Positions 3,504 to 35,264 of a stretch of DNA of 64,000 nt are shown in pieces (within the stretch, counting starts at the first letter, position 1; each line of letters starts with the position of its first letter). Below the pieces are notes generated by a model. It did no database searches and was not told the DNA's origin. It saw nothing but the letters and a program-made list of their open reading frames with translations. The stretch comes from Corynebacterium sp. (GTDB lineage: Bacteria; Actinomycetota; Actinomycetes; Mycobacteriales; Mycobacteriaceae). The stretch is from NCBI GenBank assembly GCA_030530985.1, contig JAUMTX010000003.1:18005-82004 (forward strand), read 5' to 3'. Position numbers and translations under genes: made by a program.

Positions 3504-3575
3504 GGGAACGTCGTATAGTGGCTAATACCTCAGCCTTCCAAGCTGAAGACGCGGGTTCGATTCCCGTCGTTCCCT
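3504..3575 (+). tRNA. tRNA-Gly (anticodon TCC)
   Basis: A manual cloverleaf fold gives acceptor GGGAACG/CGTTCCC, D-stem GTAT/ATAC, anticodon stem TCAGC/GCTGA with loop CTTCCAA, and T-arm GCGGG-TTCGATT-CCCGT, total 72 nt. A TATAGT -10-like box lies upstream. Confidence 0.9.
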
Positions 3576-4179: not shown

Positions 4180-4253
4180 CGGGGCGTGGCGCAGTTTGGT
4201 AGCGCACCTGCTTTGGGAGCAGGGGGTCGCAGGTTCAAATCCTGTCGCCCCGA
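4180..4253 (+). tRNA. tRNA-Pro (anticodon TGG)
   Basis: The fold has acceptor CGGGGCG/CGCCCCG, D-stem GCGC/GCGC, anticodon stem CCTGC/GCAGG with loop TTTGGGA, and T-arm GCAGG-TTCAAAT-CCTGT, total 74 nt. Confidence 0.9.
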
Positions 4254-25840: not shown

Positions 25841-26470
25841 ATGAAGAAGAATAGCTCGATTCGTGACCGAATCTCAGAGATTACCCAGCCCACCGGGGCT
25901 GAGGAGAAAATGCAGGTCAGTTACCCTAAACCGCGCTTTGCTGTAAAGCCGGTTCAGGTGATTGGATTCTTGGCCATCCTGGCTGTGCTGGTGGGTGGTT
26001 TGGTTTTGCGTGAACCAAGCCCGCCGGCAGCCCCGCCACCCACATGGGAGGAGCAGGAGGCTGGGCCAAGTATTCTTGTGGTTTCCGTGCAGGGGGCGGT
26101 GGCCAATCCGGGAATGTACACTGTGGAGGCCGGTGTGCGCGTGGGGGATTTACTGACCGTGGCGGAGCCACATTCCAATGCTGATATTAGTTCCCTCAAC
26201 CATGCCCAAAAGCTTGTCGACGGCCAACAAATCACCATCCATCGCATTGGTGAAGCCCCGGCCGCAGCCGCTGAAAGCGCCAAAGTGTCTATTAACACCG
26301 CCACCGCCGCAGAATTAGAAAAACTGCCCGGTATTGGGCCGGCCACTGCCCATGCCATTGTGGTGCATAGGGAAAAGAATGGGCCTTTTGAAAAACTTGA
26401 GGATATAACAGAAATCAAGGGCATTGGGCCACGAACCTTGGAGCGATTCATCGACCAGATTGAGCTCTAA
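25841..26470 (+). CDS. comEA: ComEA-family DNA-binding protein (SLBB domain plus tandem helix-hairpin-helix)
   Basis: An N-terminal TM anchor is followed by VNINTATAAELEKLPGIGPATAHAIV..., the HhH motifs. Confidence 0.85.
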   Translation: MKKNSSIRDRISEITQPTGAEEKMQVSYPKPRFAVKPVQVIGFLAILAVLVGGLVLREPSPPAAPPPTWEEQEAGPSILVVSVQGAVANPGMYTVEAGVRVGDLLTVAEPHSNADISSLNHAQKLVDGQQITIHRIGEAPAAAAESAKVSINTATAAELEKLPGIGPATAHAIVVHREKNGPFEKLEDITEIKGIGPRTLERFIDQIEL

Positions 26471-27825
26471 TGCGGGAGTTACGCCTGGTTCCTGCAGCCC
26501 TCACCGTCTGGCTCTGTGTGCTGCTGCCATGGTGGGGTGTGATTCCCGCCCCCGGTGCTGTTGTGGTGGCTGGTGCTTTTCTCCTTGCCTCCAAGCCTGC
26601 CATGGCGGCACTCAGTGGGATGAGTGGTTTCCTGGTGTGGCTGCGGGTCTATTTACAATCCACCTATGTGCCCGATGGGACGGTTCTTGCCCAGATTCTT
26701 AGTGCGCCCCGCCAAACCAAGACGGGGCGCTGGATTGCCACAGTGGAGATTGATGAGCACCGCTTTACGGTGCTGAGCAAAGACCCTTTGGGCACCAATG
26801 ACCTGTACCGGATGGATGTGTCTCTTATTGAGGATGCCTCCGGTACCTTGCTGCGTGCCAGCAATGTCTCTTTGGTGGAGCAGCGCACCACCTGGTCGGA
26901 GGCCGTCAAAGATATTTTCCTTGAGGCCGTGGTGCGCTTTGGTGGTGGGGAAGGGCTCATTCCCGGAATGGTGGTGGGGGATACGCGCCTGCAAAGCCCC
27001 AGCGACCAGACTGTCTATACATTGACGGGGCTTTCCCATTTGAGTGCTGTTTCTGGCTCCAATGTGGCCATTGTTCTTGCCACAGTGGCCATTGTAGCAG
27101 CCAAACTCAACCACCATCTGCGCCTGGGATTATGCGCCTTGGCCTTGCTGGGTTTTGTTTTTCTTGTTGGCCCTGAGCCCAGTGTGCTGCGCGCTGGGGT
27201 GATGGGGGCAGTGGGCTTGGTGGCTGTGCTTTTCCATAGCCGCATGGAGCCCATCCATGCGCTCAGTCTCGCTGTTATTCTTTTGCTCTTTGTGGACCCG
27301 GAATTGGGGCGGCACTATGGTTTTGCCCTTTCTGTGGCGGCCACAGCCGGGATTATTGGGCTCTACCCGGCCTTTCTACCGGCCTTTAGTCGCCTGCCCG
27401 CCATAGTGGCCAGGGCTCTTGCTGTTACCATTGCTGCCGATATTGTTACCCAGCCGATTATTGCCATGATGAGTGGGCGCATTAGCTTTGTCAGTGTGTC
27501 CTGCAATATGCTGGCGGCCCCACTGGTGCCGGTGGTCACGGTCCTTGGAATGCTGGCCTGTATTTTGAGCCTCATTCCCGGTAATTTTGAGGCCTTGCCT
27601 TTGCTTATTTGTCGCTGCTGTGCTTGGTGGATTGACCTGGTTGCCAATACGGCCTTTAGTCTGCCCATGGCCAATGTGGAATTAGGCATGGGGTTCATCA
27701 GTATTTTTTGGGCCACCATGCTTGCCCTATGGGTGCACGCAATTTTGTGGGGGATTACGCGCAAGAAAAAAGCGGGCCCCGAAGGACCCGCCATAGATAA
27801 AGGCTTGGTTAACAAGCAGGATTAG
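26470..27825 (+). CDS. comEC: ComEC/Rec2-family membrane channel protein (no C-terminal metallo-beta-lactamase domain)
   Basis: A polytopic membrane protein that overlaps the comEA stop (TAATG). The competence-domain region GLSHLSAVSGSNV is present. At 451 aa it carries only the transmembrane core. Confidence 0.75.
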   Translation: MRELRLVPAALTVWLCVLLPWWGVIPAPGAVVVAGAFLLASKPAMAALSGMSGFLVWLRVYLQSTYVPDGTVLAQILSAPRQTKTGRWIATVEIDEHRFTVLSKDPLGTNDLYRMDVSLIEDASGTLLRASNVSLVEQRTTWSEAVKDIFLEAVVRFGGGEGLIPGMVVGDTRLQSPSDQTVYTLTGLSHLSAVSGSNVAIVLATVAIVAAKLNHHLRLGLCALALLGFVFLVGPEPSVLRAGVMGAVGLVAVLFHSRMEPIHALSLAVILLLFVDPELGRHYGFALSVAATAGIIGLYPAFLPAFSRLPAIVARALAVTIAADIVTQPIIAMMSGRISFVSVSCNMLAAPLVPVVTVLGMLACILSLIPGNFEALPLLICRCCAWWIDLVANTAFSLPMANVELGMGFISIFWATMLALWVHAILWGITRKKKAGPEGPAIDKGLVNKQD

Positions 27826-28118
27826 CGCAGGAACGGTGGAATCACGGTTCGTGGCAGATAACCCATATCAACCAGGGTATTGTAGCCATTGGTCAGCAGC
27901 ACAGTGGTGGCTGCCATCCACACCAGACCCAGGCCGCTAAAGGCACCCAGGACGGATGCGCGTTCAGCAACAGACATATCTTCACTGGACAGGGCGCTAT
28001 TCACGCGGCTAATGGTCAGGCCGGAGCCGGTGGATTCTTCAGCACCAGCTGGGGCAACAACACCGGTCACCAGGGCAGCACTAAGGGCAGTTGCGCCGAT
28101 AATCTTCTTGAGCTTCAT
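27822..28118 (-). CDS. Small secreted, membrane-anchored protein (paralog 1 of 3)
   Basis: An MKLKK signal peptide ends in the AGA-EE cleavage site. There is a single C-terminal TM segment and a YNTLVD motif. The RBS is GAAGGA. Confidence 0.6.
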   Translation of the reverse strand: MKLKKIIGATALSAALVTGVVAPAGAEESTGSGLTISRVNSALSSEDMSVAERASVLGAFSGLGLVWMAATTVLLTNGYNTLVDMGYLPRTVIPPFLR

Positions 28119-28143
28119 ATCTATATCCTTCTTCGAATCGGCC

Positions 28144-28359
28144 TTAAAGTCGGCGGAGTGGCTCGATCATACGAGCATCAACCAAGGCATTATAGATGGC
28201 AATCTGGGCTGCCAAGATCACAGTCAGGGATGCTGGCACGAAAAGAATCTTGCCAACTACATCCTTGGTATCAGCATGAGCTGGGGCAGAAGGGGCAGAC
28301 ACAGCCAAGGAGGCTGCCGCGACTACACTCAAAGCAGCTGCAGTAAGACGCTTTTTCAT
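28144..28359 (-). CDS. Small secreted, membrane-anchored protein (paralog 2 of 3)
   Basis: An MKKR signal peptide ends in AHA-DT. There is a C-terminal TM segment and a YNALVD motif. The RBS is AAGGAG. Confidence 0.6.
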   Translation of the reverse strand: MKKRLTAAALSVVAAASLAVSAPSAPAHADTKDVVGKILFVPASLTVILAAQIAIYNALVDARMIEPLRRL

Positions 28360-28371
28360 TCTCGTGACTCC

Positions 28372-28575
28372 TTAGCTAGAGAAATTGGACTTGTACATGA
28401 CGGTGAGCATACCCACAACAATCACCAGTGCAACTGGAACTGCATATGGATTGACACCTGGATCAACGACCTGTTGTGCGACGGCATCCTGCTGTACTGG
28501 CTCAGCATGGGCAGGAGCAGTAATGCCAGCGGTCAAAGTTGCGGCGGCTACGAAGCCTGCAATTACTTTCTTCAT
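28372..28575 (-). CDS. Small secreted, membrane-anchored protein (paralog 3 of 3)
   Basis: An MKK signal peptide ends in AHA-EP, with a C-terminal TM segment. The RBS is AAGGAGAA. Confidence 0.6.
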   Translation of the reverse strand: MKKVIAGFVAAATLTAGITAPAHAEPVQQDAVAQQVVDPGVNPYAVPVALVIVVGMLTVMYKSNFSS

Positions 28576-28640
28576 ATGTTCTCCTTTGGTCTAAGGCCTA
28601 AAATATACCTTACTACAATAACGATGGTAAGGTAGGGCTA

Positions 28641-29531
28641 ATGAATCATCTAATCCTGGGCGAACAAGAATTCTTCGCCGACCGCATTCGCAGGGAGCTG
28701 ACTAAAGGGCTCCCTACTACGGTTATCAAAGCTAGCGAGCTTGTACAGGATCTCACCCCCATCGGCCCAACCCTCTTTGCGGAGGACCGTGCCGTGGTGG
28801 TCACTAATGTGCAAGATATCTCCAAGGCCTCCATTCAGCCTTTGATTAATGCACTTGATGATCCACAACCTGGACTCACTATTGTCCTCATGCACAATAA
28901 CAAGGGACGCTTCAAGGCAGTTATTAAAGACCTTGAAAAGAAATGTACAGTCCATGCGGTTCCCACCTTTGACTATAAAGAACGCGTGCCATGGGTGGTG
29001 CGCGAATTTAGCAACCTTGGGGTGCGCGTCAATAGCGAAATTGCAGAAACAGTCTTGGATGCGGTGGGCTCCGACCCCCGTGAACTCGCAGCCGCCATTA
29101 ACCAGCTGGTCGCCGATACCGAAGGCCAAGTGACCGTGAGTGCGGTGCGCGCCTACTATGGTGCCACCGCTGAGGTCTCCGGTTTTAATATTGCTGATGC
29201 TGTGGTGGCCGGTAATAGGGGACTGGCATTGACCAGTACGCGCCGGGCCCTGCAGATTGGTGTGGCCCCCGCACTCATTGTGGCCGCACTCAATATGAAG
29301 TTTTCTTTGATTGCGAAGGTCTATACTTCACGTCAGCAACCAGCCGATGTGAAAGATGCCCCATGGAAAATCCGCCAGGCCATGCAGCAGGCACGCCGCT
29401 GGCCGGAGGCGTCGATAAGCCAAGCAATGATCATTATTGCCGAATTGGATGCGGCGGTGAAGGGCCGTGGCGGCGAGATTGAGTATGAGGTTGAAAGCGC
29501 TGTGGCTAAACTTGCAGCACTTGCTAAGTAG
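28641..29531 (+). CDS. holA: DNA polymerase III delta subunit
   Basis: The length and features fit the delta subunit, and the gene keeps the conserved position between comEC and rpsT. An upstream alternative start is possible. Confidence 0.75.
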   Translation: MNHLILGEQEFFADRIRRELTKGLPTTVIKASELVQDLTPIGPTLFAEDRAVVVTNVQDISKASIQPLINALDDPQPGLTIVLMHNNKGRFKAVIKDLEKKCTVHAVPTFDYKERVPWVVREFSNLGVRVNSEIAETVLDAVGSDPRELAAAINQLVADTEGQVTVSAVRAYYGATAEVSGFNIADAVVAGNRGLALTSTRRALQIGVAPALIVAALNMKFSLIAKVYTSRQQPADVKDAPWKIRQAMQQARRWPEASISQAMIIIAELDAAVKGRGGEIEYEVESAVAKLAALAK

Positions 29532-29992: not shown

Positions 29993-30523
29993 TTAGCCCC
30001 AACCATATTCGGAGCGCATGCGGGCACTGACACGGTCAAAGCAATTCTGCGGCATGATGGTGCCTTGGCGGCGAACACCAGACTCAGAAATCTCAATGAT
30101 TTTATCCAGGCGCAGCCAGCAGGAGCGGCCCTTATCATCCCAGGCGCCGGAACCAATATCCACCCAGTTTTCTTCCTTGGAGTGGTCCCCATGTGGGGAA
30201 ATGAGCTGGCCAAGCAGGGCGCGCTTGGTGCGGCCAATAACCAAAATGGCGCGTTCCTCATGCAGATCATCAACCTTAATCCACACAATTTCGCCTGGTT
30301 CTGCCTGGCCATCCATGGTCGGGGCATAGTACATTGCCAGGTCGATGGTTTCGGCCCGGTGGGTGGTGATATTGGTGGAGTAGCGGTGATTGGTGGCATG
30401 GTGGCCCGTGCCCATGTGGTCACTAATCTTGACCAAAGCCTTATCCACATCCTCCCGGCCGGGGCCCAGGAAAATGCGGCGGAGCCGTGCGCGCCACGGC
30501 GACCCTTCTTCGACGGCATGCAT
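29993..30523 (-). CDS. PemK/MazF-like domain protein with an N-terminal extension (176 aa); no antitoxin gene nearby
   Basis: The core GEIVWIKVDDLHEERAILVIGRTKRALLGQLI resembles the MazF/PemK GDIVWVDF...RPALVxS pattern. The overlapping ORF 29905..30726 is a shadow. Confidence 0.45.
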   Translation of the reverse strand: MHAVEEGSPWRARLRRIFLGPGREDVDKALVKISDHMGTGHHATNHRYSTNITTHRAETIDLAMYYAPTMDGQAEPGEIVWIKVDDLHEERAILVIGRTKRALLGQLISPHGDHSKEENWVDIGSGAWDDKGRSCWLRLDKIIEISESGVRRQGTIMPQNCFDRVSARMRSEYGWG

Positions 30524-33563: not shown

Positions 33564-35264
33564 TTACTTCCAGCTTGGCAGCCACATCAGGCTGTTGTAC
33601 CAGGAGGTCGGAACCATATATCCGTAGAGGATAGGGGACCAGTAGATAAAGGCTGCAACCACAAGGCCCATGTAGATGCACACGGCCAGGGAACCAGGGG
33701 TGAGGTTCAAACGGCCAAAGAAGAGGGCAATCTTAGTACCCAAACCAACCTTGGAGGCGGTGGCTACGGCAGGCGCAGGGCTATCGGCAGGGGCGTCGAG
33801 AAGCTCAGGATCGGCCTGGGCAGCATTCTTTGCCTCAAGAGCAGCCTTGGCCATGGCAGGCCAGTCCTTACCGCGACCCCACAGGTCATGGCAGGCCATG
33901 GCAATCATGACAATGGTAAATGGGATGAGTGCGGCAGCATAGAAGAAGTACATCTGGCGGCCGAAATTGCTAAACCATGGAAGCCAGCCGGCGGCGAAGG
34001 CAACCAGCGGGAGGATATAGCGCTGACGGCGACGAATCACAGCGGAGTACAGGGCCCAGGCAATAGCAGGGACGGTCATCCACCAGATGGCTGGGGTACC
34101 AAAGAGGTAAATCATGCCGGAGCAGGATTCGCCGCCCATGCAGGTGCCATTGGAGGAATAATAAAGAATTGGGCGGGAGGCAACCAGCCAGGACCATGGC
34201 TTAGATTCCCACGGGTGCATATGGCCATTGGCATTGGTCAGGGAAGCATGGAACTTGAGCACCGACTGGTGATAGTAAATCCAGTTGCCCAAGGAATCAG
34301 GGAGCTTAGTCACCCAACCAGTGGCCACACCTTCACGGATGGCGTGGCGGTAGACGGCAGTCTCATCGGAGAACCATGCGCGCCAGGCCCACACATAGAG
34401 CAGCACAGGCATGAGGAAAAGGGAGCCCAGGGCAGGAATGGTGTCGTAGAGCAGGGCGCCAAGCAGTGGGCGCTGCGCCTGATACTTATGGCGCAGATAC
34501 CAGTCCAGGGCCACGCTGAGCACACCGAAGAAAGCAATATAGTAGAGGCCCGACCACTTAACAGATAGGGAGCAACCAATCATGACGCCTTCAGCAAAGC
34601 GCCACCAGCGGAAACCAAAACGAGGACCATAGGCCGAACCCCAGTCGCCGTCGTATTTAAAATAGGCTTCGTGGATGCGGCGGTGCATTTGGTTAAAGTC
34701 CTGGACTGCAAAGAGTGCTGCAGCCACAATAAAGAGGACCTGGAAGATATCCAGCATGCCAAAACGCGAGGTGACGAGCAAAACACCATCGCAGACACCC
34801 AGCACACCGGCAATAGTCATTGCGGTGCGGGAGCGGGAAAGCTGGCGGGCAAGAAGCATAATGAGCAGCACCGTTGTGGTGCCACAAATAGCCGCCATGA
34901 GGCGCCAACCAAGCGGGGAGTAGCCAAAGAAAAACTCACCAATAGCAATAATCTGCTTGGCTAGTGGTGGGTGCACAACCAGGCCATAGCCCGGGTTGAG
35001 TTCAATGCCGCCGGTAATAAAATTGGAGGCATCCTTGACCATATCGAAGGCCTGCGGAACATAGTGCTTTTCATCAAAGACTGGGGTGCCAGTCGCAGTG
35101 GCCGCGGTGAGGCGGAAAAAGCGGGTCAGCAGGGTGATAGTGGCGAAAACCAGGAGGATAGTTGTATCAGTAGCAGTCCATGCAAGTTTGCGTGGAATGC
35201 GCAGGATAACCGCCTGGCGTGGTTCTTTTTTCTTTGCAATTGCTCGTCGCGTGGCTATAGTCAC
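33564..35264 (-). CDS. pmt: Protein O-mannosyltransferase (GT39 family)
   Basis: A large polytopic protein with the GT39 N-terminal loop (DEKHYVPQA...). It lies divergent from rsmI, as in the Rv1002c/Rv1003 arrangement. Confidence 0.8.
   Translation of the reverse strand: MTIATRRAIAKKKEPRQAVILRIPRKLAWTATDTTILLVFATITLLTRFFRLTAATATGTPVFDEKHYVPQAFDMVKDASNFITGGIELNPGYGLVVHPPLAKQIIAIGEFFFGYSPLGWRLMAAICGTTTVLLIMLLARQLSRSRTAMTIAGVLGVCDGVLLVTSRFGMLDIFQVLFIVAAALFAVQDFNQMHRRIHEAYFKYDGDWGSAYGPRFGFRWWRFAEGVMIGCSLSVKWSGLYYIAFFGVLSVALDWYLRHKYQAQRPLLGALLYDTIPALGSLFLMPVLLYVWAWRAWFSDETAVYRHAIREGVATGWVTKLPDSLGNWIYYHQSVLKFHASLTNANGHMHPWESKPWSWLVASRPILYYSSNGTCMGGESCSGMIYLFGTPAIWWMTVPAIAWALYSAVIRRRQRYILPLVAFAAGWLPWFSNFGRQMYFFYAAALIPFTIVMIAMACHDLWGRGKDWPAMAKAALEAKNAAQADPELLDAPADSPAPAVATASKVGLGTKIALFFGRLNLTPGSLAVCIYMGLVVAAFIYWSPILYGYMVPTSWYNSLMWLPSWK

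Follow-up and report, generated by a model that had tools for sequence, protein, structure and literature searches.

Three small genes beside comEC in Corynebacterium: a conserved operon of putative exported envelope proteins

The A-B-C operon and its conservation

Three small genes, here termed A, B and C, lie on the minus strand between a comEC-like gene and holA in a housekeeping block of a Corynebacterium chromosome. The stretch of DNA analysed (the window) covers 64,000 nt at a GC content of 53.7%, on contig JAUMTX010000003.1 of assembly GCA_030530985.1; NCBI gives its source as 'MAG: Corynebacterium sp.' (MAG, metagenome-assembled genome) and lists the three products as hypothetical proteins Q3972_01355 to 01365. 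Gene A (28372..28575) encodes 67 amino acids, gene B (28144..28359) 71 and gene C (27822..28118) 98. These are the minus-strand open reading frames (ORFs) of 98, 71 and 67 amino acids that a first-pass annotation, made from the sequence, had reported between comEC and holA; its coordinates and lengths were exact.

The ORF calls are matched by orthologs in two further genomes: locus L001, in the sister MAG GCA_030530875.1, and locus L005, on a low-GC (41.6%), much more distant Corynebacterium-like contig from run SRR29005954. The first-pass annotation had proposed a homolog search to see whether the grouping near comEC is fixed, and in all three genomes found the trio stands beside the 3′ end of comEC, with one ortholog of each gene per genome in the same order and orientation. 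The A, B and C proteins are 68, 72 and 101 amino acids long in L001 and 71, 72 and 103 in L005; the C orthologs are P0002 and P0009, respectively. Amino acid identity between the window and L001/L005 is 73/43% for A, 91/63% for B and 65/46% for C (46–48% for P0009 of L005), to be read beside 73/50% for comEC, 72/48% for comEA, 81/68% for rsfS and 90/70% for proA. With values near those of rsfS and proA, B is constrained as strongly as housekeeping proteins are. Against L001 the ratio of nonsynonymous to synonymous substitution rates (dN/dS) is 0.15 for A, 0.04 for B and 0.25 for C, with dS near saturation at ∼1–1.7. A, B and C are real genes, syntenic and under selection.

The ORF list also holds a plus-strand ORF of 248 amino acids (27889..28635) that runs antisense over the whole trio and is rich in Cys, His and Trp. 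We reject it as a gene: stop codons interrupt it in both L001 and L005, which marks it as spurious; codon usage on the other strand probably gave rise to it.

The trio carries its own expression signals. A consensus scan finds a putative sigma-70-type promoter-like site on the minus strand (28602..28630; TTACCA, 17 nt, TATATT), ∼27 nt upstream of the A start codon and within the gap to holA; it lies in a block, GCCCTACCTTA(C/G)CAT..GTATATTTTAG, that is kept in the sister locus L001. A sigma-D-type promoter, for which we take the consensus to be GTAAC..GAT, was looked for upstream of A and not found. Shine-Dalgarno sequences (AAAGGAG, AAGGAG and GAAGGA) stand 5–8 nt ahead of the three ATG codons, bearing out the earlier claim of a ribosome-binding site for each gene. 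The A stop codon falls within the Shine-Dalgarno sequence of B (TAAGGAG) in 3/3 genomes, and the B stop codon abuts that of C. Downstream, a terminator scan identifies an intrinsic terminator of the A-B-C transcript (27771..27792, minus strand) with a 9-bp stem of which seven pairs are GC, a TTCG loop and then TTTTTTCTT. The hairpin lies inside the last codons of comEC (encoding ..KKAGPEGPA..), an arrangement repeated in L001, and a hairpin with a T-run follows C in both L001 and L005 although the stem sequences differ. The L005 hairpin, which appears bidirectional, occupies a gap of 50 bp. With a promoter-like site and a terminator of its own the trio forms an autonomous transcription unit: A-B-C is a self-contained operon and a stable three-gene unit.

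Its flanks are as follows. The comEC-like gene (26470..27825, plus strand; Pfam Competence, 1.4e-41) is convergent with gene C, and the two overlap by 4 nt. Its product is short (451 amino acids), matches only the Pfam Competence domain (residues 167–427) and has no metallo-beta-lactamase domain; the orthologs are of similar length, 443 and 451 amino acids. On the other side, holA (28641..29531, plus strand; NCBIfam delta subunit, 7.5e-85) is divergent from gene A, with 65 bp (28576–28640) between the two start codons, so that either the promoters must overlap or holA may be leaderless. In L005 the place of holA beside A is taken by a gene fragment for the first 155 amino acids of a phage major head protein (phrog_283, E 1e-16), at 2–466 of L005 on the minus strand, separated from A by a very AT-rich spacer of 330 bp (467–795). 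This suggests that a prophage or phage remnant has inserted beside the L005 trio, and it makes the adjacency to holA incidental.

Predicted architecture and relationships of the three proteins

Signal peptides and transmembrane (TM) segments were assigned by heuristic sequence criteria in nine sequences, namely A, B and C from each of the three genomes. In the window each leader combines an MKK start, a hydrophobic region of 15–18 residues, a Pro and an AxA box. It spans residues 1–24 in A (MKK...AHA-E, the hyphen marking predicted cleavage), 1–29 in B (MKKR...AHA-D) and 1–26 in C (MKLKK...AGA-E), which would leave mature chains of ∼43, 42 and 72 residues. Among the nine sequences two to three basic residues stand at the start, except in C of L005, which has a longer n-region; then come a core of 15–18 residues rich in Ala, Gly, Thr and Val, the Pro, the AxA box and an acidic or small polar residue. 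This n-h-c plan with its Pro and AxA is kept in 9/9 sequences though the leader sequence itself drifts. A lipobox Cys and a twin-Arg motif are absent from all nine, and A, B and C of the window contain no Cys at all. The leaders thus have the appearance of the classical Sec/signal peptidase I (SPase-I) type. On these heuristic calls the export-signal-like leaders that the first-pass annotation had seen (AGA-EE, AHA-DT, AHA-EP) are present in all three proteins and kept in the orthologs.

Each protein has a second hydrophobic stretch of 16–20 residues near its C-terminus. Its fitness as a stop-transfer helix was gauged with the Hessa-2005 scale summed over 19 residues, a crude measure, on which control TM helices of the window (from BCCT, ComEC, DoxX and protein O-mannosyltransferase, PMT) have a median dG sum of 1.2 (interquartile range 0.15–2.2). 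The sums for the C-terminal segments are 3.5–4.6 for A, where the hydrophobic core is short and contains a Pro, 2.1–4.1 for B and 0.8–1.2 for C. Of the C-terminal TM helices that had been claimed, the one in C is accordingly well founded, the one in B borderline and the one in A questionable; the hydrophobic stretch itself is there in all three. For C, AlphaFold2 run on the ortholog alignment predicts helices at residues 36–44 and 50–84 with a moderate mean pLDDT of 61. None of the trio helices qualifies as an amphipathic pore-lining helix (maximum hydrophobic moment, muH, 0.23–0.41), and the A helix has no polar residues. A pore of the PorA/PorH kind is not supported by these helices, which are hydrophobic and not amphipathic.

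Conservation is highest in the hydrophobic helices and the C-terminal tails and lower in the exposed N-terminal segments. Alignment of the orthologs gives the pattern DPxxNPYAxP...LTxxYxSNFSS for A. For B it gives VPAxLTVxxAAxIAxYNALVDARxIEPLRR, with a conserved Q/H in mid-helix and the Arg-rich tail IEPLRR. For C it gives A(L/F)SSxDMS..RA..L...W.A..T..L.N.YN.LVDM...PPF.R; here an A(L/F)SSxDMS...RA..L block in the exported part is followed by the helix, YN(T/S)LVDM and a tail ..PPF(L/S)R. In the window B ends in ..LRRL and C in ..PPFLR, and neither carries SNFSS.

B and C share one motif. YN(A/T/S)LVD stands right after the helix in both and is kept in 6/6 sequences despite synonymous codon changes, in agreement with the YN(T/A)LVD tail noted earlier in two of the three proteins. 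It is YNALVD at residues 56–61 of B (28177..28194, minus strand), directly after the hydrophobic segment and invariant in the three orthologs, and YNTLVD at residues 79–84 of C (27867..27884, minus strand), as placed by the ortholog alignment and by hhalign with B. B and C may plausibly share an origin or a binding partner.

Beyond this motif the proteins have little in common. BLASTP alignments among A, B and C cover only the leaders or the six residues of YNxLVD, hhalign probabilities among the three profiles are 15–30% (with YNxLVD the only part of B and C that aligns), and cross-profile hmmsearch gives E-values of 0.02–0.5. The trio had been described as a tandem family of paralogs, which similarity so limited does not sustain. 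Nor do the genomes bear out the accompanying idea of a diversifying array: the orthologs are 1:1 and in fixed order in three genomes, and B of L005 retains 63% identity where comEC retains 50%. A, B and C are three stable orthologous groups.

Database searches place none of the three in a known family. Pfam-A and NCBIfam give no family at E≤1 for the trio apart from noise confined to leaders, such as a weak LPAM_1 match (16.5 bits, cutoff 20) to the leader of A; a PDB profile search gives no relative at E≤10, though PorB structures have been solved; PHROGs gives only noise at E≥0.025; PADLOC gives no match; and Rfam gives none in the trio region. The first-pass annotation was right to set aside pilins and LPXTG substrates. 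Neither a class III leader (G-FTLxE) nor the Flp motif (G-xxxxEY) is in any of the nine sequences, and LPXTG or LAXTG is absent from the trio, whose tails are highly conserved, unlike sorting signals. With their signals all missing from the trio sequences, we reject the identities of pilin or pseudopilin, sortase substrate, lipoprotein and Tat substrate.

The family is also narrowly distributed. Protein homolog searches with A, B and C returned the window itself and one sister MAG only, and a profile search of 1.84 billion representative proteins added one member, P0009; among 5.8 billion clustered and 1.84 billion representative proteins the family is thus found in three genomes only. No match came from tblastn of C against plasmid and phage records, from IMG/VR scans with B and C or from JGI metagenome scans with the B profile and a ComEC profile. 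A genome-contig scan with HolA found nothing beyond the sister genome and a single actinomycete (L004) that is not syntenic. In a cluster look-up at 90% identity LepA is a singleton, which indicates that the lineage is poorly sampled and that the narrow distribution is partly a sampling effect.

The SNFSS terminus of A and the competing readings

The last five codons of gene A (28375..28389, minus strand) encode SNFSS, in which the penultimate Ser is a candidate acceptor for O-mycoloylation. A ends in (K/Q)SNFSS in 3/3 genomes, despite an overall identity to L005 of 43%. The codons are TCC AAT TTC TCT AGC in the window and AGT AAT TTT TCC AGC in L005; as the changes are synonymous, conservation is at the protein level. 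From the amino acid composition of the window, the chance of NFSS at a given C-terminus is ∼2.8e-6. In the window and in L001, mature A has no Ser apart from those in SNFSS.

The same residues end two O-mycoloylated proteins of Corynebacterium glutamicum. PorH ends in 54NFSS57 with an O-mycolate on Ser56; PorB ends in 123NFSS126, and the RevPorBhis primer decodes to SNFSS; in ProtX the penultimate residue, Ser37, is modified (PMC5310785). Mature PorB carries two mycoloyl groups, at Ser7 and Ser98 in its disordered termini, and many mapped mycoloylation sites are SS doublets; plasma-membrane-anchored CtaC and QcrC are modified as well (PMC11066868). In the trio, a conserved SS doublet lies in the exported part of C, and a Ser acceptor in a C-terminal ..(NF)SS, as in PorH, PorB and ProtX, is found in A only. 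With a PorB leader of 27 residues, Ser98 is the penultimate residue of that protein. PorB and PorC have Sec leaders and are co-transcribed (PMC5310785), and the mycomembrane proteins of corynebacteria are in general small, alpha-helical and encoded in operons with interdependent partners, lipidation of one partner being enough for assembly (PMC13643282). The likeness of the A terminus to those of PorB and PorH points to the mycomembrane as its putative destination. A tail in which positive charge is not conserved (K in the window but Q in L001 and L005), the least TM-like core of the three and the Ser residues of SNFSS as the only ones in the mature chain together fit a C-terminus of A that lies outside the plasma membrane. 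If SNFSS is used, that end must be extracellular, which conflicts with a C-terminal TM anchor for A.

Our leading, tentative reading is that the operon encodes three small, hydrophobic and helical proteins of the envelope that are exported through Sec, A being probably O-mycoloylated and targeted to the mycomembrane, with B and C co-expressed as its partners. That the proteins are exported and cleaved, where they reside, that A is mycoloylated and that the three form a complex we infer from sequence features. Each precursor would be targeted to the Sec translocon by its SPase-I leader (MKK, hydrophobic core, Pro, AxA), and cleavage would release mature chains each dominated by one hydrophobic helix. 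A would then expose a flexible SNFSS end outside the plasma membrane, where a protein mycoloyltransferase (Cmt1/MytC in C. glutamicum) may esterify the penultimate Ser with mycolate, as at the identical C-termini of PorB (SNFSS) and PorH (NFSS), and the lipid would target or anchor A at the mycomembrane. B and C, made from the transcript of A with coupled translation signals, are taken to be its partners; the two have a juxta-helix YNxLVD and Arg-containing tails in common and might join A in a mycomembrane assembly, or else reside in the plasma membrane as anchors with the N-terminus out and the C-terminus in (Nout-Cin). The narrow, fast-evolving distribution of the trio, which resembles that of corynebacterial porins, counts in favour of this reading. 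More broadly, A, B and C are probably sequence-distinct alpha-helical envelope proteins of a narrow Corynebacterium clade. It is a doubtful further step that they represent a new class of Sec-dependent mini mycomembrane proteins, in which a portable SNFSS tag would direct Cmt1-type O-mycoloylation of the 43-residue A, and A would form a three-component envelope complex with B and C, possibly bridging the plasma membrane and the mycomembrane.

Several points weigh against the mycomembrane reading. The link to mycoloylation is a five-residue motif, and the mycoloylome study reported no strict consensus; the genes of the 64-kb window do not include cmt1; and the Pfam, NCBIfam and PDB searches reveal no sequence homology to PorA, PorH, PorB or any other family. 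The trio helices have low hydrophobic moments, the hydrophobic segment of C scores like ordinary plasma-membrane TM helices, and the conserved Arg after the B and C helices fits the positive-inside rule for an Nout-Cin protein. When such a leader is followed by a strongly hydrophobic helix, that helix would normally be expected to stop transfer.

These last features are what would be expected of bitopic type I (Nout-Cin) microproteins of the plasma membrane, a quite possible alternative to the mycomembrane reading. After leader cleavage each would stay in that membrane by its C-terminal helix, with the tail (SNFSS, YNALVDARxIEPLRR or YNxLVDM..PPFxR) in the cytoplasm. There the three would interact among themselves or with some larger membrane complex, as minor accessory or regulatory subunits, and SNFSS would be coincidental or serve another purpose. 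Hydrophobic stretches of the right length behind a Sec-type leader, the Arg after the helix in B and C, low amphipathicity, a C segment on a par with control TM helices and the single long helix predicted for C (residues 50–84) all speak for such proteins, and conservation that is best in the tails is as expected of a binding interface. The reading must however accept a terminal SNFSS that has an a priori chance of ∼3e-6 and matches a proven lipidation site, an A tail without conserved positive charge, and segments in A and B that are marginal as stop-transfer helices. Moreover, microproteins this small with a cleavable leader are uncommon in bacteria.

It is improbable that the N-terminal segments stay uncleaved and give a two-helix hairpin with both ends inside (Nin-Cin), such as a holin-like or stress-response membrane peptide. 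MKK followed by 15–18 hydrophobic residues could serve as a signal anchor, and positive charges at the N- and C-termini suit an in/in topology; but the leader h-regions, rich in Ala, Gly, Thr and Ser, are weakly hydrophobic (dG sums 2.4–3.8), and the Pro, AxA and acidic or polar +1 residue of 9/9 sequences are the signature of cleaved leaders. No holin matches in PHROGs, and neither the window nor L001 has a phage context.

A role as competence accessory proteins working with ComEA and ComEC is highly unlikely. The position beside these competence genes, which the first-pass annotation had singled out, is constant in that the trio adjoins the comEC 3′ end in every genome found, but the operon and comEC converge, a promoter-like site and a terminator belong to the operon itself, its products have no pilin or pseudopilin features, and its homologs are confined to a small clade while comEC is widespread. 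Synteny over comEA-comEC-holA-rpsT-lepA is ancient, and inserts peculiar to one lineage are to be expected in such a block.

There is similarly little chance that A, B and C act as secreted toxins, bacteriocins or signalling peptides alongside an immunity partner, or that they derive from coat proteins of a filamentous phage, for all their small size, leader peptides, narrow distribution and procoat-like layout (leader, short acidic N-terminus, helix, basic tail): they have no match in PHROGs, PADLOC, phage or plasmid records or IMG/VR, no processing, export or immunity genes lie nearby, the chromosomal site in a housekeeping block is stable, and purifying selection is strong on helix and tail and not on an exposed active peptide, which also speaks against the toxin-like or signalling peptides envisaged in the earlier annotation.

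Surrounding genes and comparison with known systems

The block in which the operon lies reads tig, clpX, mdh, Nramp, obg, proB, proA, nadD, rsfS, a His-phosphatase gene, comEA, comEC, the trio, holA, rpsT, lepA, DoxX, a zf-HC2 anti-sigma-like gene, PMT, rsmI, BCCT, metG, tatD, an rpf-like gene, ksgA and ispE. The PMT homolog (33564–35264, minus strand), another envelope protein-modification enzyme, is encoded ∼5 kb from the trio. Between rpsT and lepA a minus-strand ORF of 176 amino acids (29993–30523) has a sub-threshold match to PemK/MazF-like toxins (E 5.6e-4, 20.5 bits, cutoff 23.1), and a gene of 176 amino acids occupies the matching position in L001 and in locus L002. Farther off, a minus-strand gene at 1582–2373 encodes a 263-amino-acid protein with a GmrSD_C restriction-endonuclease C-terminal domain (E 1e-20), near tRNA genes at 3504–3575 and 4180–4253.

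How proteins reach the mycomembrane and are retained there is still to be explained, and corynebacteria have very few known proteins of this membrane (PMC13643282, PMC11066868). No consensus motif for O-mycoloylation has gained acceptance. If the mycomembrane reading is right, A would be a third, unrelated protein ending in SNFSS, conserved across species and with a Sec leader, which would support a recognisable and potentially predictive C-terminal lipidation tag. The trio would then represent a very small, three-gene and Sec-dependent form of the O-mycoloylated envelope proteins known from corynebacteria and would add a new small-protein operon to the envelope inventory. Should the proteins form a new mini mycomembrane class as well, ..NFSS would be a transferable, predictive signal for mycoloylation and targeting, common to unrelated proteins, and would offer a bioinformatic handle on the mycomembrane proteins of uncultured Corynebacterium. 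Were the proteins instead to reside in the plasma membrane, they would provide a clean case of conserved cleavable-leader membrane microproteins in Actinobacteria, a kind rarely annotated or studied. As the genes are known from three genomes only, the practical impact is limited.

Among the closest known systems, PorB/PorC of C. glutamicum shares with the trio a Sec-type leader (a predicted one in the trio), co-transcribed partner genes and restriction to Corynebacterium. The C-terminal pentapeptide SNFSS of PorB, whose penultimate Ser is a mycoloylation site, is identical to that of A. Similarity is undetectable beyond these five residues, and there is no Pfam match at E≤1. Mature PorB is a soluble-like four-helix bundle of 99 residues with a disulfide, whereas A has ∼43 residues, one very hydrophobic helix and no Cys; and PorB/PorC is a pair, whereas here there is a trio in which B and C have no tag.

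PorH/PorA and ProtX of C. glutamicum (38–57 amino acids) are, like the trio, very small, predicted to be helical and encoded in an operon with interdependent partners; the 42–72 residues of the mature chains and the helical model of C (at its pLDDT of 61) agree with this description of small helical operon-encoded proteins. PorH ends in NFSS and ProtX in ..ASS, the penultimate Ser being modified in each, where A ends in SNFSS. Unlike the trio with its clear predicted Sec-type leaders, PorA, PorH and ProtX lack a signal peptide and leave through the plasma membrane by an unknown route; the trio helices are hydrophobic rather than amphipathic, and no homology is detectable. The porH-porA genes lie elsewhere in the genome.

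Single-pass membrane microproteins and proteins of the M13 procoat type offer a likeness of layout and size to B and C, with a cleavable leader, one helix and an Arg-containing tail; the trio has no sequence relation to them and no phage context. With PorB and PorH, the trio would share a plan rather than an ancestry: small, apparently exported, operon-encoded proteins with NFSS at a C-terminus.

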